From: Escherichia coli
GTDB lineage: Bacteria; Pseudomonadota; Gammaproteobacteria; Enterobacterales; Enterobacteriaceae
NCBI RefSeq assembly: GCF_050320075.1
Contig: NZ_CP190018.1
Length of the DNA: 64,000 nucleotides
Strand: one strand, 5' to 3'
Shown: in pieces, positions 8,911-64,000 of the stretch
How positions within the stretch are numbered: the first letter of the stretch is position 1
Layout of the letters: each line of letters opens with the position of its first letter
Program-made: the position numbers and the translations under genes
Notes under the pieces: model-generated
Database searches by the model: none
The model's input: only the letters and a program-made list of their open reading frames with translations
What the model was told of the DNA's origin: nothing

Positions 8911-8978
8911 GCCGGATAACATTGCTTATCCGGCTAACCACTCTTGCTTGTTCAGGCCCGGTAGCCGGAGCGACCGGG
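8911..8978. repeat. REP-like palindromic hairpins in the fucI-fucK intergenic region
   Basis: GCCGGATAA-cattgc-TTATCCGGC (8911-8934) and CCCGGT-10 nt-ACCGGG (8957-8978). Confidence 0.45.
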
Positions 8979-14495: not shown

Positions 14496-14513
14496 ATGCG
14501 CTGATGTGATAAT

Positions 14514-14543
14514 GCCGGATGCGACGTTTGCGCCGTATCCGGC
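14514..14543. repeat. REP / palindromic unit between convergent fucO and xni
   Basis: GCCGGATGCGACGTTTGCGCCGTATCCGGC imperfect palindrome. Confidence 0.6.
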
Positions 14544-41960: not shown

Positions 41961-43209
41961 GAGTTCCCCGCGCCAGCGGGGATAAACCGTTTGCTGAGTG
42001 TGCATACACACTTGAACATCAGAGTTCCCCGCGCCAGCGGGGATAAACCGCTATCAGTAACAACCTGGTAAATATCGGTTTTGAGTTCCCCGCGCCAGCG
42101 GGGATAAACCGTTTTCGGGGCCATAAATGGCGCTCATTTATGTGAGTTCCCCGCGCCAGCGGGGATAAACCGGGAAAATAAACGCGTTATTCCTTGATGG
42201 GTGCGAGTTCCCCGCGCCAGCGGGGATAAACCGAGCAACAGGTATTTCATATGGCCTGCCGTGCTGAGTTCCCCGCGCCAGCGGGGATAAACCGGCCAGC
42301 GGCGCTGAGTACGACGACCTGATTAAGAGTTCCCCGCGCCAGCGGGGATAAACCGTCAATACAACAGCAATGCTGGAGCTGGAAAAAGAGTTCCCCGCGC
42401 CAGCGGGGATAAACCGTGGTGGGATAGCTGCTCTGCCAGCGTGTCGCGGAGTTCCCCGCGCCAGCGGGGATAAACCGTGGGCGCAGCTCATGTATTCCAA
42501 TAAGGATATGAGTTCCCCGCGCCAGCGGGGATAAACCGAGATTCGCGCAATGTACGGTAAAGACAGCACCGAGTTCCCCGCGCCAGCGGGGATAAACCGC
42601 CATTCTTGTTGTCGTTCATCAAGCGCAGGGGGAGTTTCCCGCGCCAGCGGGGATAAACCGTTTGTTTTGATGATTTATCAGTATATGAATTGGAGTTCCC
42701 CGCGCCAGCGGGGATAAACCGATTTTTGCGCGGCCTGCATGAAACCAGTGGCAAAGTTCCCCGCGCCAGCGGGGATAAACCGGTACCGTTGAGCAATGGT
42801 GGGTAAATGGTGCTGAGTTCCCCGCGCCAGCGGGGATAAACCGATTTAGATACGGCACACAGGAATGCGCTGGATGAGTTCCCCGCGCCAGCGGGGATAA
42901 ACCGCATGGGAGTCCAGATTACAAATTCCAGAATGGGAGTTCCCCGCGCCAGCGGGGATAAACCGCGCCAGTCTGAGGTTTTCCGGTCATACATCGTGAG
43001 TTCCCCGCGCCAGCGGGGATAAACCGACCGTTGCTACACATATGATCAGGCATGTGCCGAGTTCCCCGCGCCAGCGGGGATAAACCGGACGATGAGACGC
43101 CCTGGTGTGCCGCGTTCGTGAGTTCCCCGCGCCAGCGGGGATAAACCGCGTTTAGCTCCGCAATGTTGGATATCACTGATGAGTTCCCCGCACCAGCGGG
43201 AATAAACCA
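41961..43209 (+). CRISPR. type I-E CRISPR array, 21 repeats and 20 spacers
   Basis: 29-bp repeat GAGTTCCCCGCGCCAGCGGGGATAAACCG recurring with exact 61-bp periodicity (41961 + 61n); all spacers 32 bp and unique; last repeat (43181-43209) degenerate. Confidence 0.98.
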
Positions 43210-49257: not shown

Positions 49258-49298
49258 TGTGTCAGGCAGCGTTCCGCGATGACGGGGCGTTGCCTTTT

Positions 49299-49328
49299 CG
49301 GCTTCTCAGGCGAGAAGCCGTTCTTATT
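49299..49328 (+). terminator. hairpin between ygcU and ygcS (weak terminator or attenuator)
   Basis: CGGCTTCTC-aggc-GAGAAGCCG followed by TTCTTATT. Confidence 0.45.
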
Positions 49329-49350
49329 ACCGGACAATGAAGGGATAAAG

Positions 49351-50688
49351 ATGAACACTTCACCGGTGCGAATGGATGATTTACCACTTAACCGTTTTCA
49401 CTGCCGCATTGCTGCGCTCACTTTCGGCGCACACCTGACCGACGGTTATGTCCTCGGCGTCATTGGTTACGCCATTATTCAGCTTACGCCCGCCATGCAA
49501 CTGACGCCGTTTATGGCGGGAATGATTGGCGGCTCAGCACTCCTTGGTTTGTTTCTTGGCAGCCTGGTTCTGGGCTGGATCTCCGACCATATTGGGCGAC
49601 AAAAAATCTTCACCTTCAGCTTTTTGCTGATTACGCTTGCTTCGTTTTTACAATTTTTTGCCACCACGCCAGAGCATCTTATTGGACTGCGCATTTTGAT
49701 TGGCATTGGTCTGGGAGGCGATTACTCAGTCGGTCACACCTTGCTGGCTGAATTTTCCCCGCGCCGCCACCGCGGTATTTTGCTGGGCGCGTTCAGCGTG
49801 GTGTGGACTGTAGGCTATGTGCTGGCAAGTATTGCCGGACATCACTTTATTAGCGAAAGCCCGGAGGCCTGGCGCTGGCTGCTGGCATCGGCAGCTCTGC
49901 CCGCATTGTTGATTACGTTATTACGCTGGGGAACGCCAGAATCGCCACGCTGGCTACTGCGCCAGGGGCGTTTTGCAGAAGCTCACGCTATCGTGCATCG
50001 CTATTTTGGTCCCCATGTTTTACTGGGCGATGAAGTGGCAACGGCGACCCATAAACACATCAAAACCTTGTTCTCTTCGCGCTACTGGCGGCGCACAGCG
50101 TTTAACAGCGTCTTCTTTGTCTGCCTCGTAATCCCATGGTTTGTGATTTATACCTGGCTGCCAACTATCGCCCAGACTATTGGTCTGGAAGATGCGTTGA
50201 CCGCTAGCCTGATGCTTAATGCGTTGTTAATTGTGGGTGCGCTGCTGGGATTAGTTCTGACGCACCTGCTGGCACATCGCAAATTTTTGCTGGGAAGTTT
50301 TTTGCTGCTGGCGGCAACGCTGGTAGTGATGGCTTGTTTGCCTTCCGGCAGTTCATTAACGCTGCTGCTTTTTGTTCTCTTCAGCACCACCATTTCGGCA
50401 GTCAGTAATCTGGTGGGCATTTTGCCTGCGGAAAGTTTTCCTACTGACATTCGCTCGCTGGGCGTCGGTTTTGCCACCGCCATGAGTCGGTTGGGCGCGG
50501 CGGTAAGTACTGGCCTGCTGCCGTGGGTGCTGGCGCAGTGGGGAATGCAAGTCACCTTATTGCTCCTGGCGGCAGTGTTGTTGGTTGGTTTTGTCGTGAC
50601 CTGGCTATGGGCACCAGAAACCAAAGCACTCCCGCTGGTGGCGGCGGGAAATGTTGGAGGTGCGAATGAACATTCTGTTAGCGTTTAA
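49351..50688 (+). CDS. ygcS: MFS sugar-porter-type transporter
   Basis: ORF 49279..50688; start placed at MNTSPVRMDDL giving 445 aa; 12-TM profile. Confidence 0.85.
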   Translation: MNTSPVRMDDLPLNRFHCRIAALTFGAHLTDGYVLGVIGYAIIQLTPAMQLTPFMAGMIGGSALLGLFLGSLVLGWISDHIGRQKIFTFSFLLITLASFLQFFATTPEHLIGLRILIGIGLGGDYSVGHTLLAEFSPRRHRGILLGAFSVVWTVGYVLASIAGHHFISESPEAWRWLLASAALPALLITLLRWGTPESPRWLLRQGRFAEAHAIVHRYFGPHVLLGDEVATATHKHIKTLFSSRYWRRTAFNSVFFVCLVIPWFVIYTWLPTIAQTIGLEDALTASLMLNALLIVGALLGLVLTHLLAHRKFLLGSFLLLAATLVVMACLPSGSSLTLLLFVLFSTTISAVSNLVGILPAESFPTDIRSLGVGFATAMSRLGAAVSTGLLPWVLAQWGMQVTLLLLAAVLLVGFVVTWLWAPETKALPLVAAGNVGGANEHSVSV

Positions 50689-52350: not shown

Positions 52351-53124
<774 letters not shown>

Positions 53125-53228
53125 ATCAGCATACTTGTCCTTAGCCTTCTGCAGTGACAGCTGGTAGTACAGCGTGCTTCTGGCCAGCCCTGCAGCCTTT
53201 AACAGGTCAGACTGGCAGTGTCCGCACC

Positions 53229-53750
53229 TCAGGCTCCGGATGACTTTCGTTTTTTCTCCAGCTCCTGGCGCTTTTTTTCCAGGAGATGCTCCTGCATGGC
53301 TTTCAGATATGCATTTTCTGCGCGAAGATAACGTAGCTCATTCTTCATCTCTTCCGGCGTCATGTTTGCCTCGTTTTCATGGGTATCATCAGAACGGGTC
53401 ATGCTTTTCTCCTTCCTGCGCCTGATAAAGGCCTCATTACCAGATTTGCGGTAGCCTTTTATCCAGTTTTTAACCGTGTTGTGGCTGGGAATGTTAAACC
53501 GGGCAGCTACCCGGGGTAGAGACTCAGAATGCCCGAGAGCATAAAGAACCACGCAAAGTTTATCTTCAGGAGAATAGCTACGCTTGTGTCTGCAATCCAG
53601 TGCCCGAGGACCGTGAAGAAGAAAAAGATTAATCCAGTGTGAGAGGCTGGTGTGAGAAAGTTGAAAGAGTTTTGCCGTAGAAATGATGCCTGCATGACCA
53701 GCCAGGTAATGATTTACAGCGGCAAGTTTTACTTCAAATGAATGTTTCAT
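53229..53750 (-). CDS. IS3-family transposase OrfA (HTH DNA-binding, leucine-zipper region)
   Basis: ORF 53229..53759; likely ATG start at 53748-53750 (MKHSFEVKLAAVNHY) giving 173 aa. Confidence 0.85.
   Translation of the reverse strand: MKHSFEVKLAAVNHYLAGHAGIISTAKLFQLSHTSLSHWINLFLLHGPRALDCRHKRSYSPEDKLCVVLYALGHSESLPRVAARFNIPSHNTVKNWIKGYRKSGNEAFIRRRKEKSMTRSDDTHENEANMTPEEMKNELRYLRAENAYLKAMQEHLLEKKRQELEKKRKSSGA
53271..53278 (-). other. candidate -1 programmed ribosomal frameshift site (A AAA AAG)
   Basis: Minus-strand A7G run about 45 nt upstream of the orfA stop, at the orfA/orfB overlap. Confidence 0.6.
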
Positions 53751-53801
53751 AAACTGCACCTTCAGATGTCAGATTATGTCCAACATTTGGGGTGCAGTTC
53801 A

Positions 53802-53819
53802 TCAAGCGTCGCATCAGGC
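53802..53819. repeat. right half of the REP split by the IS insertion (TCAA plus arm)
   Basis: TCAA + GCGTCGCATCAGGC, complementary to the left half at 52351-52365. Confidence 0.7.
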
Positions 53820-56076: not shown

Positions 56077-56442
56077 TCATTCGCCGCGATAGATACAGCC
56101 TGCAGTACAGGTTTCTTTTACCATCACCGCACTTAACAGCGGCACAACGGGTTTAACCTGATCCCAAATCCATTTTGCTAAAACTTCGCTGGTTGGGTTT
56201 TCCAGACCTGGAATATCATTGAGATAATGGTGATCGAGGCGCTCGTAGGTTGGCTTAAACGCCGCTTTCAGTTCAGCGAAATCGATAATCCAGCCCGTAT
56301 GCGGATCGACTTCCCCGGTAATTTCCAGTCGCACCATAAAGGAATGCCCGTGCAGGCGACCACATTTATGCCCTTCCGGGACGTGTGGTAAGCGGTGAGC
56401 GGCTTCGAAGGTGAAATCTTTAAATAACGTGGTGGACATCAT
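56077..56442 (-). CDS. queD: 6-carboxy-5,6,7,8-tetrahydropterin synthase (queuosine biosynthesis)
   Basis: ORF 56077..56526; start placed at [10 protein letters not shown] giving 121 aa; PTPS His motifs (CGRLHGHSF). Confidence 0.88.
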
Positions 56443-56757: not shown

Positions 56758-58557
56758 ATGACGACACAGGTCCCACCTTCCGCGTTGCTTCCGTTGAACC
56801 CGGAGCAACTGGCACGCCTTCAGGCGGCCACGACCGATTTAACTCCCACCCAGCTTGCCTGGGTTTCTGGCTATTTCTGGGGCGTGCTCAACCAGCAGCC
56901 AGCTGCGCTTGCAGCGACGCCAGCGCCCGCCGCAGAAATGCCGGGTATAACTATTATCTCCGCTTCGCAAACCGGCAATGCGCGCCGGGTTGCTGAAGCA
57001 TTACGCGATGATTTATTGGCGGCAAAACTGAACGTTAAGCTGGTGAACGCGGGCGACTATAAATTCAAACAAATCGCCAGCGAAAAACTGCTTATCGTGG
57101 TGACGTCAACGCAAGGAGAAGGGGAACCGCCGGAAGAAGCCGTCGCGCTGCATAAGTTCCTGTTCTCCAAAAAAGCGCCGAAGCTGGAAAACACCGCATT
57201 TGCCGTGTTTAGCCTCGGCGATAGCTCTTATGAATTTTTCTGCCAGTCCGGGAAAGATTTTGACAGCAAGCTGGCGGAACTGGGCGGTGAACGCCTGCTC
57301 GACCGTGTCGATGCCGACGTTGAATACCAGGCTGCTGCCATCGAGTGGCGCGCCCGCGTGGTTGATGCGCTTAAATCGCGTGCGCCTGTCGCGGCACCTT
57401 CGCAATCCGTCGCTACTGGCGCGGTAAATGAAATCCACACCAGCCCGTACAGCAAAGACGCGCCGCTGGTGGCGAGCCTCTCTGTTAACCAGAAAATTAC
57501 CGGGCGTAACTCTGAAAAAGACGTTCGCCATATCGAAATTGACTTAGGTGACTCGGGCCTGCGTTACCAGCCGGGTGACGCGCTGGGCGTCTGGTATCAG
57601 AACGATCCGGCACTGGTGAAAGAACTTGTCGAACTGCTGTGGCTGAAAGGTGATGAACCTGTCAACGTTGAGGGCAAAACCCTGCCGCTGAACGAAGCGC
57701 TACAGTGGCACTTCGAACTGACCGTCAACACCGCCAACATTGTTGAGAACTATGCCACGCTTACCCGCAGCGAAACGCTGCTGCCGCTGGTGGGCGATAA
57801 AGCGAAGTTACAGCATTACGCCGCGACGACGCCGATTGTCGACATGGTGCGTTTCTCTCCGGCGCAACTGGATGCCGAAGCGCTGATTAACCTGCTGCGC
57901 CCGCTGACCCCGCGCCTGTATTCCATCGCCTCCTCGCAGGCGGAAGTCGAGAACGAAGTACACGTCACCGTTGGCGTGGTGCGTTACGACGTGGAAGGCC
58001 GCGCCCGTGCCGGTGGTGCCTCCAGCTTCCTCGCGGATCGCGTGGAAGAAGAGGGTGAAGTCCGCGTCTTTATCGAACATAACGATAACTTCCGCCTGCC
58101 CGCTAACCCGCAAACGCCGGTGATTATGATTGGCCCAGGCACCGGCATCGCGCCGTTCCGCGCCTTTATGCAGCAACGCGCCGCCGACGAAGCGCCGGGG
58201 AAAAACTGGCTGTTCTTTGGCAACCCGCACTTTACGGAAGATTTCCTCTACCAGGTGGAATGGCAGCGCTACGTCAAAGAGGGCGTGCTGACGCGTATCG
58301 ATCTTGCCTGGTCGCGCGATCAAAAAGAAAAAATTTACGTACAAGACAAACTGCGCGAACAGGGCGCAGAGCTGTGGCGCTGGATCAATGACGGTGCCCA
58401 CATTTATGTCTGCGGCGACGCTAATCGCATGGCGAAAGACGTTGAGCAGGCACTTCTGGAAGTGATTGCCGAATTTGGTGGCATGGACACCGAAGCGGCG
58501 GATGAATTTTTAAGTGAGCTGCGCGTAGAGCGCCGTTATCAGCGAGATGTCTACTAA
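56758..58557 (+). CDS. cysJ: sulfite reductase [NADPH] flavoprotein alpha component
   Basis: 599-aa ORF recognised as CysJ (flavodoxin and FNR-like domains). Confidence 0.95.
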
Positions 58558-60269
58558 TGAGCGAAAAACATCCAGGGCCTTTAGTGGTCGAAGGAAAACT
58601 GACAGACGCCGAGCGCATGAAGCTTGAAAGCAACTACCTGCGCGGCACCATTGCGGAAGATTTAAACGACGGTCTGACCGGCGGCTTTAAGGGCGATAAC
58701 TTCCTGCTGATCCGCTTCCACGGCATGTATCAGCAGGATGACCGCGACATCCGCGCCGAACGTGCTGAACAGAAGCTGGAGCCACGTCATGCAATGCTGT
58801 TGCGCTGCCGTCTGCCGGGTGGCGTGATTACCACCAAACAGTGGCAGGCGATCGATAAATTTGCCGGTGAAAACACCATCTATGGCAGCATTCGCCTGAC
58901 CAACCGCCAGACGTTTCAGTTCCACGGCATTCTGAAAAAGAACGTCAAACCGGTGCACCAGATGCTGCACTCGGTCGGTCTTGATGCGCTGGCGACTGCT
59001 AACGACATGAACCGTAACGTACTCTGCACCTCGAACCCTTACGAGTCGCAGCTACACGCGGAAGCGTATGAATGGGCGAAGAAAATCTCTGAACATCTGC
59101 TGCCGCGTACCCGCGCGTATGCGGAGATCTGGCTCGATCAGGAAAAAGTCGCCACCACCGATGAAGAACCGATCCTCGGTCAGACTTATTTGCCGCGTAA
59201 ATTCAAAACTACGGTAGTGATCCCGCCGCAGAACGATATCGATCTGCATGCCAACGACATGAACTTCGTGGCAATCGCCGAAAACGGCAAGCTGGTGGGC
59301 TTTAACCTGTTGGTGGGCGGTGGGCTTTCTATCGAACACGGCAACAAGAAAACCTACGCCCGCACGGCGAGTGAGTTTGGCTATCTGCCGCTGGAGCATA
59401 CGCTGGCGGTGGCAGAAGCCGTCGTGACGACTCAGCGCGACTGGGGTAACCGTACCGATCGTAAAAATGCCAAAACCAAATACACGCTGGAGCGCGTGGG
59501 GGTTGAGACGTTTAAAGCGGAAGTGGAGCGTCGCGCGGGGATCAAATTTGAACCGATCCGTCCATATGAGTTCACCGGACGCGGCGATCGTATTGGCTGG
59601 GTTAAAGGCATTGATGATAACTGGCACCTGACGCTGTTTATCGAAAATGGTCGCATCCTTGATTATCCTGGGCGTCCGCTGAAAACCGGCCTGCTGGAGA
59701 TCGCGAAGATCCACAAAGGCGATTTCCGCATTACGGCGAACCAGAATCTGATCATCGCCGGTGTGCCGGAAAGCGAGAAAGCGAAGATCGAGAAGATTGC
59801 CAAAGAGAGCGGGTTAATGAATGCCGTCACGCCGCAGCGTGAAAACTCAATGGCCTGCGTGTCATTCCCGACTTGCCCGCTGGCGATGGCCGAAGCCGAG
59901 CGTTTCCTGCCGTCTTTTATCGACAACATCGATAATTTAATGGCGAAACATGGTGTCAGCGATGAGCATATCGTGATGCGTGTAACAGGCTGCCCGAACG
60001 GTTGTGGTCGCGCGATGCTGGCGGAAGTGGGCCTGGTGGGTAAAGCGCCGGGTCGCTACAACCTGCATCTTGGCGGCAACCGCATTGGGACACGTATCCC
60101 ACGGATGTATAAAGAAAACATCACCGAACCGGAAATCCTGGCGTCGCTTGATGAACTGATAGGGCGCTGGGCGAAAGAGCGCGAAGCGGGTGAAGGCTTC
60201 GGCGACTTTACGGTGCGTGCGGGCATCATTCGCCCGGTGCTCGATCCGGCGCGCGATTTGTGGGATTAA
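58557..60269 (+). CDS. cysI: sulfite reductase [NADPH] hemoprotein beta component
   Basis: 570-aa ORF recognised as CysI; TAATG overlap with cysJ. Confidence 0.95.
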
Positions 60270-60288
60270 CCATCAGCCCGGTCTTGTA

Positions 60289-60321
60289 GGCCTGATAAGA
60301 CGCGTGAGCGTCGCATCAGGC
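60289..60321. repeat. REP / palindromic unit between cysI and cysH
   Basis: GGCCTGATAAGACGCGTGAGCGTCGCATCAGGC, same arms as the REP split by the IS. Confidence 0.7.
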
Positions 60322-60342
60322 AAGGCAAACAGTGAGGAATCT

Positions 60343-61077
60343 ATGTCCAAACTCGATCTAAACGCCCTGAACGAACTGCCGAAGGTAGATCGCATTCTGG
60401 CGCTGGCAGAAACTAACGCCGAACTGGAAAAACTGGACGCTGAAGGCCGCGTTGCCTGGGCGCTGGATAATCTGCCCGGTGAATATGTACTTTCTTCCAG
60501 TTTCGGCATTCAGGCGGCGGTGAGCCTGCATCTGGTGAATCAGATTCGCCCGGATATTCCAGTGATCCTCACCGATACGGGTTACTTGTTCCCGGAAACC
60601 TACCGCTTTATTGACGAGTTAACGGACAAACTCAAGCTCAACCTGAAAGTGTACCGCGCTACCGAAAGCGCCGCCTGGCAGGAAGCACGTTACGGAAAAC
60701 TGTGGGAGCAGGGTGTTGAAGGCATTGAAAAGTACAATGACATCAACAAAGTCGAACCGATGAACCGGGCGCTGAAAGAACTGAATGCGCAAACCTGGTT
60801 TGCTGGCCTGCGCCGTGAACAATCCGGCAGCCGCACCAATTTACCGGTGCTGGCAATTCAGCGTGGCGTATTTAAAGTGCTGCCGATTATCGACTGGGAT
60901 AACCGAACTATTTATCAGTACCTGCAAAAACATGGCCTGAAATATCACCCATTATGGGATGAAGGATATTTATCGGTCGGTGATACCCATACAACCCGTA
61001 AATGGGAACCCGGCATGGCGGAAGAAGAAACGCGTTTCTTTGGCTTAAAAAGAGAATGTGGGTTACACGAAGGGTAA
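60343..61077 (+). CDS. cysH: phosphoadenosine phosphosulfate (PAPS) reductase
   Basis: ORF 60190..61077; start placed at [12 protein letters not shown] giving 244 aa; upstream extension overlaps the REP and is rejected. Confidence 0.93.
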
Positions 61078-61094
61078 ATATTGCCGGATAAATT

Positions 61095-61128
61095 AAACGC
61101 CTCTGTCAGAAATGATGGGGGCGTTTTT
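61095..61128 (+). terminator. putative terminator after cysH
   Basis: AAACGCC...GGCGTTT stem with TTTTT run; loop is long, so only moderate support. Confidence 0.4.
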
Positions 61129-61341
61129 ATTTTGCGAGCAGCATTCCTGATTTTAAACGTGAACGCCGCTGGAAGAATTATCAGGTATAGAATGGCGTTG
61201 GGTGCTTGAGGCTGTCTGGCGTTAAGCATTCGCGAGGTTCCAGATGGACAAAAGCCCCAGGCGATATTTCTATCAACCTGAGGCCAGCGTTCGAACCTAA
61301 GCAATTCGAATGTTAGTCTCTTCTTTGCAGGGAGGCAAGAC

Positions 61342-61494
61342 ATGCTGACAAAATATGCCCTTGTGGCAATCATCGTACTGTGTTGTACAGTACTGGGATT
61401 CACGCTGATGGTAGGCGACTCGTTGTGTGAGTTGAGTATCAGAGAACGTGGTATGGAGTTTAAGGCAGTTCTCGCTTACGAATCGAAGAAGTAG
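61342..61494 (+). CDS. Hok-family type I toxin (50 aa, HokE/HokX-like)
   Basis: ATG 61342 preceded by GGGAGG; product [50 protein letters not shown] has one TM helix and the conserved Hok C-terminal region; below the ORF-track size cutoff. Confidence 0.8.
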
Positions 61495-61688: not shown

Positions 61689-64000
61689 ATGCGTAAATAT
61701 CCTTTAAGTTTACTGAAGGATAAAAATATTGTGACTTTTTTTGATTTCTGGGGAAAAACCCGACGCGGCGAGAAAGACGGGGGCGACGACTATCACCTTC
61801 TTTGCTGGCATTCGCTGGATGTAGCCGCGATGGGCTATTTAATGGTTAAAAGCAATTGCTTCGGGCTGACTGACTATTTTCGTCAACTAGGTTTCGCTGA
61901 TACGGAGCAGGCAGCACAATTTTTCGCCTGGCTATTGTGCTGGCACGATACTGGAAAATTTGCCCGCTCTTTTCAGCAACTTTACCTGCACCCACAACTC
62001 AAGGTTCCGGAAGGCGCAAGAAAGAATTACGAAAAGATCTCTCATTCAACGCTGGGCTACTGGCTGTGGCATCATTATTTAAGTGAATACGAAGAATTGC
62101 TTCCTTCATCTTCACTCTCTCCGCGCAAACTTAAACGGGTGATGGAGATGTGGATGCCCATGACTACCGGGCATCATGGTCGGCCCCCTGACCGTATTGA
62201 TGAACTGGATAATTTTCTGCCTGAAGACAAAGCTGCCGCACGAGATTTTCTCCTTGAAATCAAGGTACTGTTTCCGCTCATCGAGATCCCCGCATTCTGG
62301 GATGATGACGAGGGCATTGAACTTTTAAAACAACTTTCCTGGTATATCTCTGCAACCGTCGTACTCGCAGACTGGACGGGATCGTCAACGCGGTTTTTTC
62401 CACGCGTTGCACAGGCAATGGATATTAAAGATTACTGGCAGAAGGCTTTAGTTCAGGCTCAAAACGCCTTAACCGTCTTTCCTCCAAAAGCACAAACCGC
62501 GCCTTTCACCGGAATTAATACGCTGTTTCCTTTTATTGAGCACCCGACACCGTTACAGCAAAAGGTGCTGGATCTGGATATCAGCCAGCCTGGGCCACAG
62601 TTATTTATTCTGGAGGATGTGACTGGCGCAGGTAAAACAGAAGCGGCGCTTATCCTGGCCCACAGGTTGATGGCTGCGGGGAAAGCACAGGGTTTGTTTT
62701 TTGGCCTGCCAACAATGGCAACGGCCAATGCCATGTACGATCGGCTGGTAAAAACCTGGCTTGCTTTCTATTCGCCAGAATCCCGCCCCAGCCTGGTGCT
62801 GGCACACAGTGCCCGCACATTAATGGACCGCTTTAATGAATCACTCTGGTCCGGTGATTTAGTCGGGTCAGAAGAACCGGATGAACAAGCGTTCAGTCAG
62901 GGATGTGCGGCCTGGTTTGCCGACAGTAACAAGAAGGCGTTGCTGGCTGAAATTGGCGTCGGCACGCTGGATCAGGCGATGATGGCGGTGATGCCGTTTA
63001 AACATAATAATCTGCGGCTTCTGGGACTGAGTAACAAAATCCTGCTGGCTGATGAGATCCATGCCTGTGACGCTTACATGTCGTGCATTCTTGAAGGATT
63101 GATTGAGCGGCAGGCGCGTGGAGGAAACAGCGTTATTTTGCTTTCTGCCACGTTATCTCAACAGCAGCGCGACAAACTCGTTGCTGCCTTTGCGCGTGGT
63201 GCAGAGGGCCAGCAAGAAGCTCCGTTCCTGGAAAAGGATGATTACCCCTGGCTGACGCACGTTACGAAATCGGATGTGCATTCACACCGGGTAGCAACGC
63301 GCAAAGACGTTGAGCGTAGCGTGAGCGTGGGTTGGCTTCATAGCGAACAAGAATGTATTGCGCGTATCGAATCGGCAGTAAGTCAGGGGAAATGCATCGC
63401 CTGGATCCGGAATTCTGTCGATGACGCTATTAAGGTTTATCGTCAGTTGCTTGCCCGCGGCGTCATTCCTGCTTCCAGCCTTTCTCTGTTTCATAGCCGC
63501 TTTGCTTTTAGCGATCGCCAGCGAATTGAAACGGAAACGCTGGCACGCTTCGGTAAAAGTTGTAGTTTACAGAGATCATCGCAAGTCATTGTTTGTACAC
63601 AAGTAATTGAACAAAGTGTGGATATTGACCTGGACGAAATGATATCCGACCTGGCCCCTGTTGATTTGCTGATCCAACGGGCGGGGCGATTACAGCGGCA
63701 TATCCGCGATATTAATGGTCAGTTAAAGCGTGACGGAAAAGACGAGCGTTCCCCTCCTGAATTGCTGATTCTGGCCCCCGTCTGGGACGACGCTCCAGGT
63801 GACGAATGGTTCGGCAGTGCCATGCGTAACAGTGCATATGTCTATCCCGATCATGGACGAATCTGGCTGACGCAGCGTGTACTGCGTGAGCAAGGCGCGA
63901 TTCAAATGCCACACGCAGCCCGCCTTCTTATTGAATCAGTCTACGGTGAGGACGTGGTAATGCCGGAAGGATTTGCCCGCAGCGAGCAGGAACAAGTGGG
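61689..64000 (+). CDS. cas3: type I-E Cas3 (HD nuclease plus DExH helicase), 3' end outside window
   Basis: Frame open from ATG 61689 (alternative GTG 61731 with AGGA upstream) to the window end; HD-domain motifs (HLLCWHSLDVAAMG, LLCWHDTGKF), Walker A GAGKTEAA, DExH-like LADEIHACD. Confidence 0.9.
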   Translation, partial: MRKYPLSLLKDKNIVTFFDFWGKTRRGEKDGGDDYHLLCWHSLDVAAMGYLMVKSNCFGLTDYFRQLGFADTEQAAQFFAWLLCWHDTGKFARSFQQLYLHPQLKVPEGARKNYEKISHSTLGYWLWHHYLSEYEELLPSSSLSPRKLKRVMEMWMPMTTGHHGRPPDRIDELDNFLPEDKAAARDFLLEIKVLFPLIEIPAFWDDDEGIELLKQLSWYISATVVLADWTGSSTRFFPRVAQAMDIKDYWQKALVQAQNALTVFPPKAQTAPFTGINTLFPFIEHPTPLQQKVLDLDISQPGPQLFILEDVTGAGKTEAALILAHRLMAAGKAQGLFFGLPTMATANAMYDRLVKTWLAFYSPESRPSLVLAHSARTLMDRFNESLWSGDLVGSEEPDEQAFSQGCAAWFADSNKKALLAEIGVGTLDQAMMAVMPFKHNNLRLLGLSNKILLADEIHACDAYMSCILEGLIERQARGGNSVILLSATLSQQQRDKLVAAFARGAEGQQEAPFLEKDDYPWLTHVTKSDVHSHRVATRKDVERSVSVGWLHSEQECIARIESAVSQGKCIAWIRNSVDDAIKVYRQLLARGVIPASSLSLFHSRFAFSDRQRIETETLARFGKSCSLQRSSQVIVCTQVIEQSVDIDLDEMISDLAPVDLLIQRAGRLQRHIRDINGQLKRDGKDERSPPELLILAPVWDDAPGDEWFGSAMRNSAYVYPDHGRIWLTQRVLREQGAIQMPHAARLLIESVYGEDVVMPEGFARSEQEQV

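Follow-up and report, generated by a model that had tools for sequence, protein, structure and literature searches.

The window analysed here is a 64-kb segment of the Escherichia coli chromosome. It shows three mismatches to strain YZLc1-3, which was taken as the reference strain, since it matches at all other positions, instead of AR_0067, which has about 99% identity to the window and carries indels. On the plus strand the window contains cysI, which encodes the 570-aa hemoprotein of sulfite reductase (58557..60269, with a TAA stop codon at 60267-60269), followed by cysH, which encodes the 244-aa PAPS (phosphoadenosine phosphosulfate) reductase (60343..61077). The operon order cysJ-cysI-cysH is common to the window and K-12. 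Within the 73-nt spacer between cysI and cysH we identified a single Z1-type REP (palindromic unit) at 60286..60321 and a Shine-Dalgarno sequence, GAGG, at 60334..60337 on the plus strand, 5 nt before the cysH ATG. A terminator scan also finds a terminator-like G+C-rich hairpin followed by TTATTTTG on the plus strand at 61095..61126, 18 nt after the cysH stop codon, which is likely the end of the cysJIH transcript. A weak match to ctRNA_p42d at the same position is probably just this hairpin.

A longest-ORF rule, under which an ORF is opened at the first ATG, GTG or TTG after a stop, places the beginning of cysH far upstream of its ATG. The preliminary description reported a 295-aa ORF from 60190, and the ORF list contains it (60190-61077, plus strand, GTG start). 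Its first 51 codons (60190..60342, plus strand) form an upstream extension that we regard as spurious and non-coding. They were said to overlap the 3' end of cysI and a REP, which is what the coordinates give: bases 60190-60269 are the last 80 nt of cysI read in another frame, through the cysI stop codon, and the remainder is the spacer with its inverted repeat.

The start of cysH

The ATG at 60343 is in the frame of the ORF, 51 codons downstream of GTG 60190, and its product begins MSKLDLNAL. The six annotated E. coli records that were examined all have a 244-aa cysH in RefSeq with its start at this ATG, and genes of equal length are called in E. fergusonii, E. albertii, Salmonella, Citrobacter, and Klebsiella. 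The C-terminus of the protein reads ...KRECGLHEG, i.e. the ECGLH motif, which carries the catalytic cysteine of PAPS reductase, is present.

Alignment with characterised orthologues, suggested earlier as a check on the start, puts the N-termini of the PDB chains on ORF residue 52 or 53. Residues 1-244 of the E. coli chain 2o8v_A correspond to ORF residues 52-295, and the E. coli chain 1sur_A begins at ORF residue 53 (Ser2). For 6vpu_A, a second solved PAPS reductase, residues 9-251 correspond to ORF residues 52-294. CysH of K-12 (PDB 1SUR, 2O8V) has the same 244-aa length, MSKLDLNAL start, and ECGLH motif as the window protein, and differs from it at a single residue (Thr in the window versus Ala in K-12 at CysH residue 164). 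Two NCBIfam equivalogs recognise the ORF, TIGR02057 at 344.7 bits (above its cutoff of 254.2) and NF002537 at 321.4 bits (above 154). Both cover ORF residues 59-294 only; the NF002537 model has 244 positions, of which position 3 corresponds to ORF residue 59. In contrast, the APS_reductase model TIGR02055 scores 123.8, under its cutoff of 235.3, so the protein is not of the APS reductase type that contains an Fe-S cluster.

Signals at the nucleotide level point to the same codon. ATG 60343 is the only candidate start with a good Shine-Dalgarno site, with a pairing energy of -6.5 kcal/mol versus -2.1 to -2.4 kcal/mol at three upstream GTGs, and the first 51 codons from this ATG have a codon-usage score of +0.636 bits/codon. 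The start ATG, the N-terminus MS(K/V)LDLNALN, and the Shine-Dalgarno region are kept in every relative compared, and E. coli through to Salmonella share the segment 60315-60339, which contains GAGG, without a single change. The exact 244-aa protein occurs on at least 1000 contigs, and the exact 295-aa form on one. We are therefore highly confident that the true start of cysH is ATG 60343 and that the 295-aa ORF is a longest-ORF artefact. The proposal that a start at 60343 gives the canonical 244-aa PAPS reductase is borne out by RefSeq, PDB, NCBIfam, the Shine-Dalgarno site, and the codon score, which all agree. The over-extension of cysH is an ordinary finding and holds no new biology.

A REP element between cysI and cysH

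The REP was located using a fuzzy regular expression and direct alignment. Its stem consists of two 14-nt arms (60290-60303 and 60308-60321; 86% complementary) joined by a 4-nt loop (60304-60307). A REP pattern with a fixed 5-nt loop misses it, the loop being only 4 nt here and the inner stem longer. Inclusion of the conserved GTAG at 60286-60289 gives the span 60286-60321; the element had been correctly recognised as a REP in the preliminary description, which gave 60289-60321 and thus placed the left edge 3 nt off. In consensus orientation it lies on the minus strand and reads GCCTGATGCGACGCTCACGCGTCTTATCAGGCCTAC. In an ungapped comparison, 34 of 37 bases are identical to the published Z1-type REP GCCTGATGCGACGCTGGCGCGTCTTATCAGGCCTACG (quoted in PMC11208160), with which it shares an imperfect palindrome, an internal A-C/A-G bulge, and a GGCCTAC tail. 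The differences are two loop bases (TCAC versus TGGC) and the base after the tail. The match to Rfam naRNA4 is under threshold.

Like the published element, the window REP is extragenic inside an operon, being wholly contained in the cysI-cysH spacer, is multicopy, and carries a target of IS621. Using a 40-nt query, we found copies at no fewer than 32-79 places per genome among the matches listed, in 5425 of 5426 genomes. The natural target of IS621 in REPs is ATCAGGCCTAC (PMC11208160), and here it lies, with its CT core, at 60286..60296 on the minus strand. Strain 7.1994/NIST0056 carries an IS621-family element inserted in the cysI-cysH REP, with the CT core (AG on the plus strand) at both junctions, and cysH is still annotated as intact. 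A BIME comprises at least two REPs whose orientations alternate, with defined linker motifs between them; the window spacer has one REP and is not of this type. Three REPs are found at the cysI-cysH position in E. albertii. A second near-identical REP occurs elsewhere in the window, where it is split by an IS (52354-52372 and 53803-53819). A literature search on the cysI-cysH REP found nothing specific to it.

The operon structure suggests that the REP is transcribed. In the predicted mRNA fold, which has an energy of -28.5 kcal/mol for the spacer, the REP pairs into its stem and GAGG is left mostly single-stranded. With 21 nt between the end of the stem and the ATG, and with the Shine-Dalgarno sequence free, the hairpin should not block initiation at cysH. 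The layout is that of the known cysJIH operon and runs from the end of cysI (60269) through the REP (60286-60321) to GAGG (60334-60337), with independent initiation of cysH at ATG 60343. In an alignment of the hairpin, 98.8% of cells are paired, no pair has changed on both sides, and there are three one-sided G-U changes; the covariation test does not differ from its shuffled controls. An intrinsic terminator at the REP was considered and rejected, as the hairpin is not followed by a T-run and the only site reported by the terminator scan is the one after cysH.

Intercistronic REPs at malE-malF and hisJ-hisQ stabilise upstream mRNA (Higgins et al. 1982, 1988, as cited in PMC12306157). The cysI-cysH REP resembles these in lying between cistrons, soon after the upstream stop codon, and in forming a stable predicted hairpin. 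By analogy, the hairpin would most likely act in the polycistronic mRNA as a barrier to 3'-to-5' exonucleases, shielding the upstream cysJI segment. REPs separated from a stop codon by fewer than 16 nt are described in PMC12306157 (ref. 17 therein) as stalling ribosomes. However, such ribosome-stalling REPs lie within 15 nt, whereas this one is 16 nt (counted to GTAG) or 20 nt (counted to the stem) after the cysI stop. Because it is at least 16 nt past that stop, it falls outside the class for which PMC12306157, in its account of stalling, reports an influence on how the upstream gene is translated.

An alternative is that the palindrome is not a REP and is instead a regulatory hairpin dedicated to the cys operon, such as a terminator or attenuator between cysJI and cysH. 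In its favour, Escherichia, Salmonella, Citrobacter, and Klebsiella all carry a hairpin in the same slot, with its end about 20 nt upstream of the cysH ATG, although the palindrome types differ. We consider this explanation improbable given the close match to the published REP, the many copies per genome, and the insertion of the REP-targeting IS621 in the palindrome. A REP could nevertheless influence the ratio of cysJI to cysH expression locally, and to that extent the regulatory explanation overlaps with the exonuclease barrier. It could also be that selection acts on the hairpin slot itself to set this ratio, with palindromes of different families occupying it in the four genera.

The open frame upstream of cysH

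The mechanical ORF opens at GTG 60190 within cysI as a result of the cysH frame lacking, by chance, a stop codon for 183 nt. A pooled stop-codon frequency of 0.038 gives each gene a probability of about 0.10 of having 60 or more open codons, and the open frame is therefore compatible with chance. Among 51 genes, about five with 60 open upstream codons are expected, and two are seen in the window. The extension scores -0.245 bits/codon, under all 50 of the genuine first-51-codon starts scored in the window (minimum -0.003), and the part that overlaps cysI scores -0.52 bits/codon versus +0.55 in the cysI frame. A profile search for families with the 51-aa extension alone gave no match. Of the features that mark a genuine extension, namely a ribosome binding site, coding-like codon usage, and a conserved frame, the cysH extension has none.

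Orthologous loci of five other species were fetched by exact-protein look-up. The extension is 51 codons in the window, 13 in K-12, 54 in E. fergusonii, 34 in E. albertii, 23 in Salmonella, 56 in Citrobacter, and zero in Klebsiella. The cysI-cysH spacer measures, in the same order, 73, 74, 73, 179, 75, 58, and 98 nt, and these lengths are out of register across the relatives. The K-12 REP carries a 1-nt insertion, which brings an in-frame TAA to 48 nt upstream of the cysH ATG, whereas the window frame is open for 183 nt.

We also weighed the possibility that an extended CysH is made at a low level in some strains, either as 295 aa from GTG 60190 or as 286 aa from GTG 60217, by ribosomes that start within cysI and continue across the REP. 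The upstream frame is open not only in the window but also in AR_0067, S14, AVS0096, and E. fergusonii, and a 295-aa form is annotated in one public record (OSK20621.1, from E. coli M056). That annotation is a gene-caller choice and provides no evidence for the extension. An extended protein would have to initiate within translated cysI at a GTG with no Shine-Dalgarno sequence (-2.1 kcal/mol), and the ribosome would then have to melt the hairpin of a spacer with the low predicted fold energy given above. Moreover, codon usage over cysI favours the cysI frame, the upstream frame is interrupted in K-12 and varies from genus to genus in both length and sequence, and the extension is covered by no family or structure. 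Taken together, these observations make production of an extended CysH very improbable. If it were made, it would be a CysH proteoform about 5-6 kDa larger, with a tail derived from out-of-frame cysI and REP sequence, and would represent a strain-polymorphic, repeat-encoded protein extension present in the open-frame strains and absent from K-12. Among the start-site supplements (PMC13245402, PMC4909307), those from TRAINSPOTTER N-terminomics have no entry for cysH or P17854, and those from TetRP have none for cysH, xni, or queD.

There is next to no likelihood that the last 13 codons of the extension, from GTG 60304 in the REP loop, mark a real or alternative start giving 257 aa: the 13-codon piece is open in all Escherichia examined, K-12 included, the GTG and its downstream frame exist in both the window and K-12, and the peptide ending SGKANSEE looks conserved to Salmonella, but this likeness is explained by nucleotide invariance at 60315-60339 (the right arm of the REP and the Shine-Dalgarno region), the final codon of the extension changes freely (TCT, CTT, or CCT, encoding S, L, or P), the GTG is in a 4-nt loop with the 17 nt upstream locked in a stem and a Shine-Dalgarno score of -2.4, it is lost in E. 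fergusonii, E. albertii, and AVS0096 (where the loop is GTAA), Klebsiella has a stop codon 51 nt upstream and no candidate start, and M52 is where the N-termini of the PDB chains and of the profile fall.

Other over-extended genes in the window

Eleven further genes had been listed as over-extended in the same way as cysH. Compared with RefSeq/PGAP starts, ten are confirmed, with extensions of 12 codons for csdA, 10 for fucK, 3 for fucR, 8 for gudD, 15 for ygcG, 25 for ygcW, 10 for ygcN, 12 for ygcO, 29 for queD, and 30 for xni. The exception is ygcS, which has no extension relative to PGAP in either the window strain or K-12, where the annotated 469-aa product is itself that of the longest ORF. 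A better Shine-Dalgarno sequence precedes an ATG that lies 24 codons inside ygcS and would give 445 aa. In addition, we identified four over-extended genes that were absent from that list: ygdI and fucO (1 codon each), ygcR (5 codons), and ygcQ (11 codons).

In total, the longest-ORF rule over-extends 15 of the 51 genes in the window (about 30%), by 1 to 51 codons, and in 13 of these 15 the annotated start has the strongest Shine-Dalgarno site among the in-frame candidates. The cysH extension is the longest in the window and the only one that crosses a canonical REP. This is a matter of quality control only, in that longest-ORF starts must not be taken as gene starts; the case of cysH illustrates that a chance-open frame can cross both the 3' end of a neighbouring gene and a REP, and that the resulting 295-aa form has reached one public record. 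The extension of fucK has its first codon within the loop of a REP-like palindrome (8911-8934).

The start of cysH

The window is E. coli chromosomal DNA that extends from mltA to cas3. It corresponds to the plus strand of NZ_CP123240.1 (strain YZLc1-3) at 1148605-1212604, and since only 3 mismatches occur in 64,000 bases, the RefSeq annotation of that sequence was transferred base for base. As the preliminary description claimed, the ORF list contains a mechanical 295-aa cysH ORF (60190..61077, plus strand) with a GTG start. By the RefSeq annotation of YZLc1-3, cysH is at 60343-61077 (244 aa), and it is annotated equivalently in AR_0067, K-12 W3110, S14, AVS0096 and NIST0056. The ATG at 60343 is in frame with the longer ORF and encodes MSKLDLNAL. 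Because the TAA stop of cysI lies at 60267-60269, the first 51 codons are made up of 80 nt of out-of-frame cysI sequence and the 73-nt cysI-cysH spacer with its palindrome; both the coordinates and the makeup of this stretch had been correctly described.

The start at 60343 and the canonical 244-aa product, also proposed earlier, are supported by RefSeq, solved protein chains, NCBIfam models, Shine-Dalgarno (SD) pairing, codon scores and comparison among genomes. When cysH was checked against characterised orthologues, their N-termini coincided with ORF residue 52 or 53: residues 1-244 of the solved E. coli enzyme (2o8v_A) align with ORF residues 52-295, the first residue of 1sur_A, Ser2, falls on ORF residue 53, and residues 9-251 of a second solved PAPS reductase (6vpu_A) align with ORF residues 52-294. 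The protein is an ordinary PAPS reductase family member that differs from the K-12 enzyme at one residue. The equivalogs TIGR02057 and NF002537 score far over their cut-offs with coverage limited to ORF residues 59-294, and the 51-aa extension searched alone against families gave no match. At least 1000 public contigs carry the exact 244-aa CysH, and one carries the exact 295-aa form; this sole match, OSK20621.1 (E. coli M056), is an over-extended gene call. Its 90%-identity cluster has a representative and listed members that are CysJ (599 aa) and share no sequence with it, probably a clustering artefact.

To gauge SD strength, we predicted how strongly the 3' end of 16S rRNA pairs with the 17 nt preceding each start. 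The ATG at 60343 gives -6.5 kcal/mol (GAGG at 60334-60337, spacing 5 nt); the three in-frame GTGs farther upstream give -2.1, -2.1 and -2.4 kcal/mol. Under a codon model built from the remaining 49 genes of the window, the extension scores -0.245 bits/codon. No genuine gene start scores so low over its first 51 codons (minimum -0.003, mean 0.40), and cysH itself reaches +0.636 over that length. Where the extension overlaps cysI, the score is -0.52 in the cysH frame versus +0.55 in the frame of cysI. Given a pooled stop frequency of 0.038, 60 open codons upstream of a start have a probability of about 0.10 per gene and are seen in 2 of 51 window genes, and such a stretch is not remarkable. The evidence supports the earlier interpretation, and the 51-codon extension is a bookkeeping artefact.

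The cysI-cysH junction in related genomes

Besides the window, the comparison of this junction covered four further E. coli strains, and E. fergusonii, E. albertii, Salmonella enterica, Citrobacter and Klebsiella with a single genome apiece. Conserved features are the start ATG, the N-terminus MS(K/V)LDLNALN(E/A)LPKV and the SD region, and no base changes between E. coli and Salmonella at window positions 60315-60339. The cysH frame upstream of the start is not conserved. Its longest extension is 51 codons in the window (spacer 73 nt), 13 in K-12 (74 nt), 54 in E. fergusonii (73 nt), 34 in E. albertii (179 nt), 23 in Salmonella (75 nt), 56 in Citrobacter (58 nt) and 0 in Klebsiella (98 nt), and the spacer length differences are not multiples of three. 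In K-12, a 1-nt insertion in the left arm of the palindrome (GATAAGAACGCG) brings a TAA into frame 48 nt ahead of the ATG. Apart from bases fixed by the palindrome arm and the SD, the "extension peptides" show no relationship from genome to genome, and the final extension codon varies freely (TCT, CTT, CCT). In 7.1994/NIST0056 an IS621-family element of about 1.3 kb splits the putative extension in two, with cysH annotated intact at 244 aa. The unconserved frame and spacer register, the K-12 stop, the unrelated peptides, the free last codon and the split together exclude that 60190-60342 has a conserved coding role.

A REP in the cysI-cysH spacer

The spacer palindrome comprises arms at 60290-60303 and 60308-60321 around a 4-nt loop, preceded by GTAG at 60286-60289, and reads GCCTGATGCGACGCTCACGCGTCTTATCAGGCCTAC on the minus strand. 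It is identical, ungapped, at 34 of 37 positions to GCCTGATGCGACGCTGGCGCGTCTTATCAGGCCTACG, a known REP query sequence (PMC11208160), the mismatches being in the loop (two bases) and just past the tail (one base). With a 40-nt query around its centre, 5425 of the 5426 complete E. coli genomes searched show 32-79 places each among the matches listed. Rfam naRNA4, which we take to be a REP-derived RNA family, matches below threshold (33.6 bits versus a gathering score of 59.5). The natural IS621 target ATCAGGCCTAC (PMC11208160) lies within the palindrome at 60296-60286 on the minus strand, the sole such site in the window. Judged by these matches, the palindrome is a genuine, ordinary REP of Z1 type, present as a single unit, and its identification as a REP in the preliminary description holds. 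With a single REP in the spacer, a BIME was rejected.

The genes cysJ, cysI and cysH are adjacent and co-oriented, with a one-base cysJ/cysI overlap; cysH has its own SD, and the only terminator-like site found (61095-61126) is 3' of cysH. In the predicted mRNA fold of a 99-nt region (-32.1 kcal/mol, z = -2.6), the REP stem forms and the GAGG is essentially unpaired. REP hairpins are barriers to 3'-to-5' exonucleases (Higgins et al., as cited in PMC12306157). From this established biology, the hairpin would block such enzymes and would tend to stabilise the cysJI portion of the transcript relative to cysH, most likely its role here. REPs reportedly lower translation of the upstream gene only when less than 16 nt from its stop codon (PMC12306157); since this one begins 16 nt (GTAG) or 20 nt (stem) past the cysI stop, it falls outside that class.

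All genera examined have a stable hairpin in this spacer that ends some 20 nt ahead of the cysH ATG, although the palindrome types differ: E. coli and E. fergusonii have a Z1-type REP, E. albertii has three REPs (L007, 1322-1500) versus the single REP of the window, Salmonella has a shorter Z2-like REP (L013, 7013-7087), and Citrobacter (L014, 7013-7070) and Klebsiella (L015, 7013-7110) have GCCGGGCAAACGCAGTGCC(A/G)CCCGGC-type palindromes. This could reflect a selected intercistronic hairpin slot, or the spacer could be a recurrent landing site for repeats. Stem pairing is retained in 98.8% of cells across seven aligned sequences. Covariation supports neither side, because just three pairs vary there, each one-sided with G-U on the plus strand, and none is compensatory. 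The three stem substitutions in S14 and AVS0096 are all C-to-T (window 60301, 60303 and 60312); these few events convert G-C or C-G pairs to G-U wobbles on the plus (mRNA) strand and would give A-C mismatches on the other.

Insertion sequences were also found in REPs. In L011, the NIST0056 locus (NZ_CP116241.1), an IS110-family IS621 occupies 1222-2500 within the cysI-cysH REP, equivalent to window 60288-60289. It is located exactly at ATCAGGCCTAC, with the CT core (AG on the plus strand) at both junctions, and the annotation treats its transposase as a frameshifted pseudogene. Here bridge-RNA-type REP targeting has occurred naturally within the cysJIH operon, and the insertion may be polar on cysH expression. 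Between ygcQ and ygcP, an IS3-family element in the interval 52354-53819 (transposase 52402-53750, minus strand), termed IS1397 family in the AR_0067 annotation, occupies the loop of a REP near-identical to the cysI-cysH REP. Its flanks are GCCTGATAAGACGCGTCAA and TCAAGCGTCGCATCAGGC, with an apparent TCAA duplication. The position fits the published REP-loop specificity of IS1397 (PMC1525189). K-12 lacks this element and has a ygcP-ygcQ spacer of just 147 nt.

Other over-extended ORFs and neighbouring features

Of 51 genes, 15, cysH among them, begin too far upstream under the longest-ORF rule when compared with RefSeq. Ten others had been listed: csdA (12 codons), fucR (3), fucK (10), xni (30), gudD (8), ygcG (15), ygcW (25), ygcO (12), ygcN (10) and queD (29). 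We add ygdI and fucO (1 codon each), ygcR (5) and ygcQ (11). For 13 of the 15, no in-frame candidate pairs more strongly at its SD than the annotated start. By RefSeq, ygcS did not belong on the earlier list: its PGAP start is that of the longest ORF (469 aa) in both the window strain and K-12, without an SD. In this start region (49279-49353), an ATG 24 codons inward, presumably that of the 445-aa curated K-12 product, is preceded by the much better SD-like AAGGGA. Two adjacent ATGs at 56436-56442 give queD 120 or 121 aa, and the RefSeq starts of ygcS and queD may be debatable.

The fucI-fucK spacer holds a REP-like palindrome (GCCGGATAAGCAATGTTATCCGGC, 8911-8934), and an ATG in its loop (8922, minus strand) opens the fucK over-extension, a second extension starting inside an intergenic palindrome. 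Further REP-like palindromes lie between convergent genes at 1333-1362 and 14512-14543.

A Hok/Gef family toxin gene (61342-61494, plus strand) lies between cysH and cas3, which begins at 61689 and continues past the window end at 64000. Sok is expected to be antisense to hok; however, Rfam places a strong sok match (61200-61357; 111.7 bits against a gathering score of 59) on the hok strand, which may be a consequence of how the family model was built. The annotated CRISPR array between queE and ygcE (41961-43209) is about 1.25 kb, versus a much shorter 334 bp in AR_0067.
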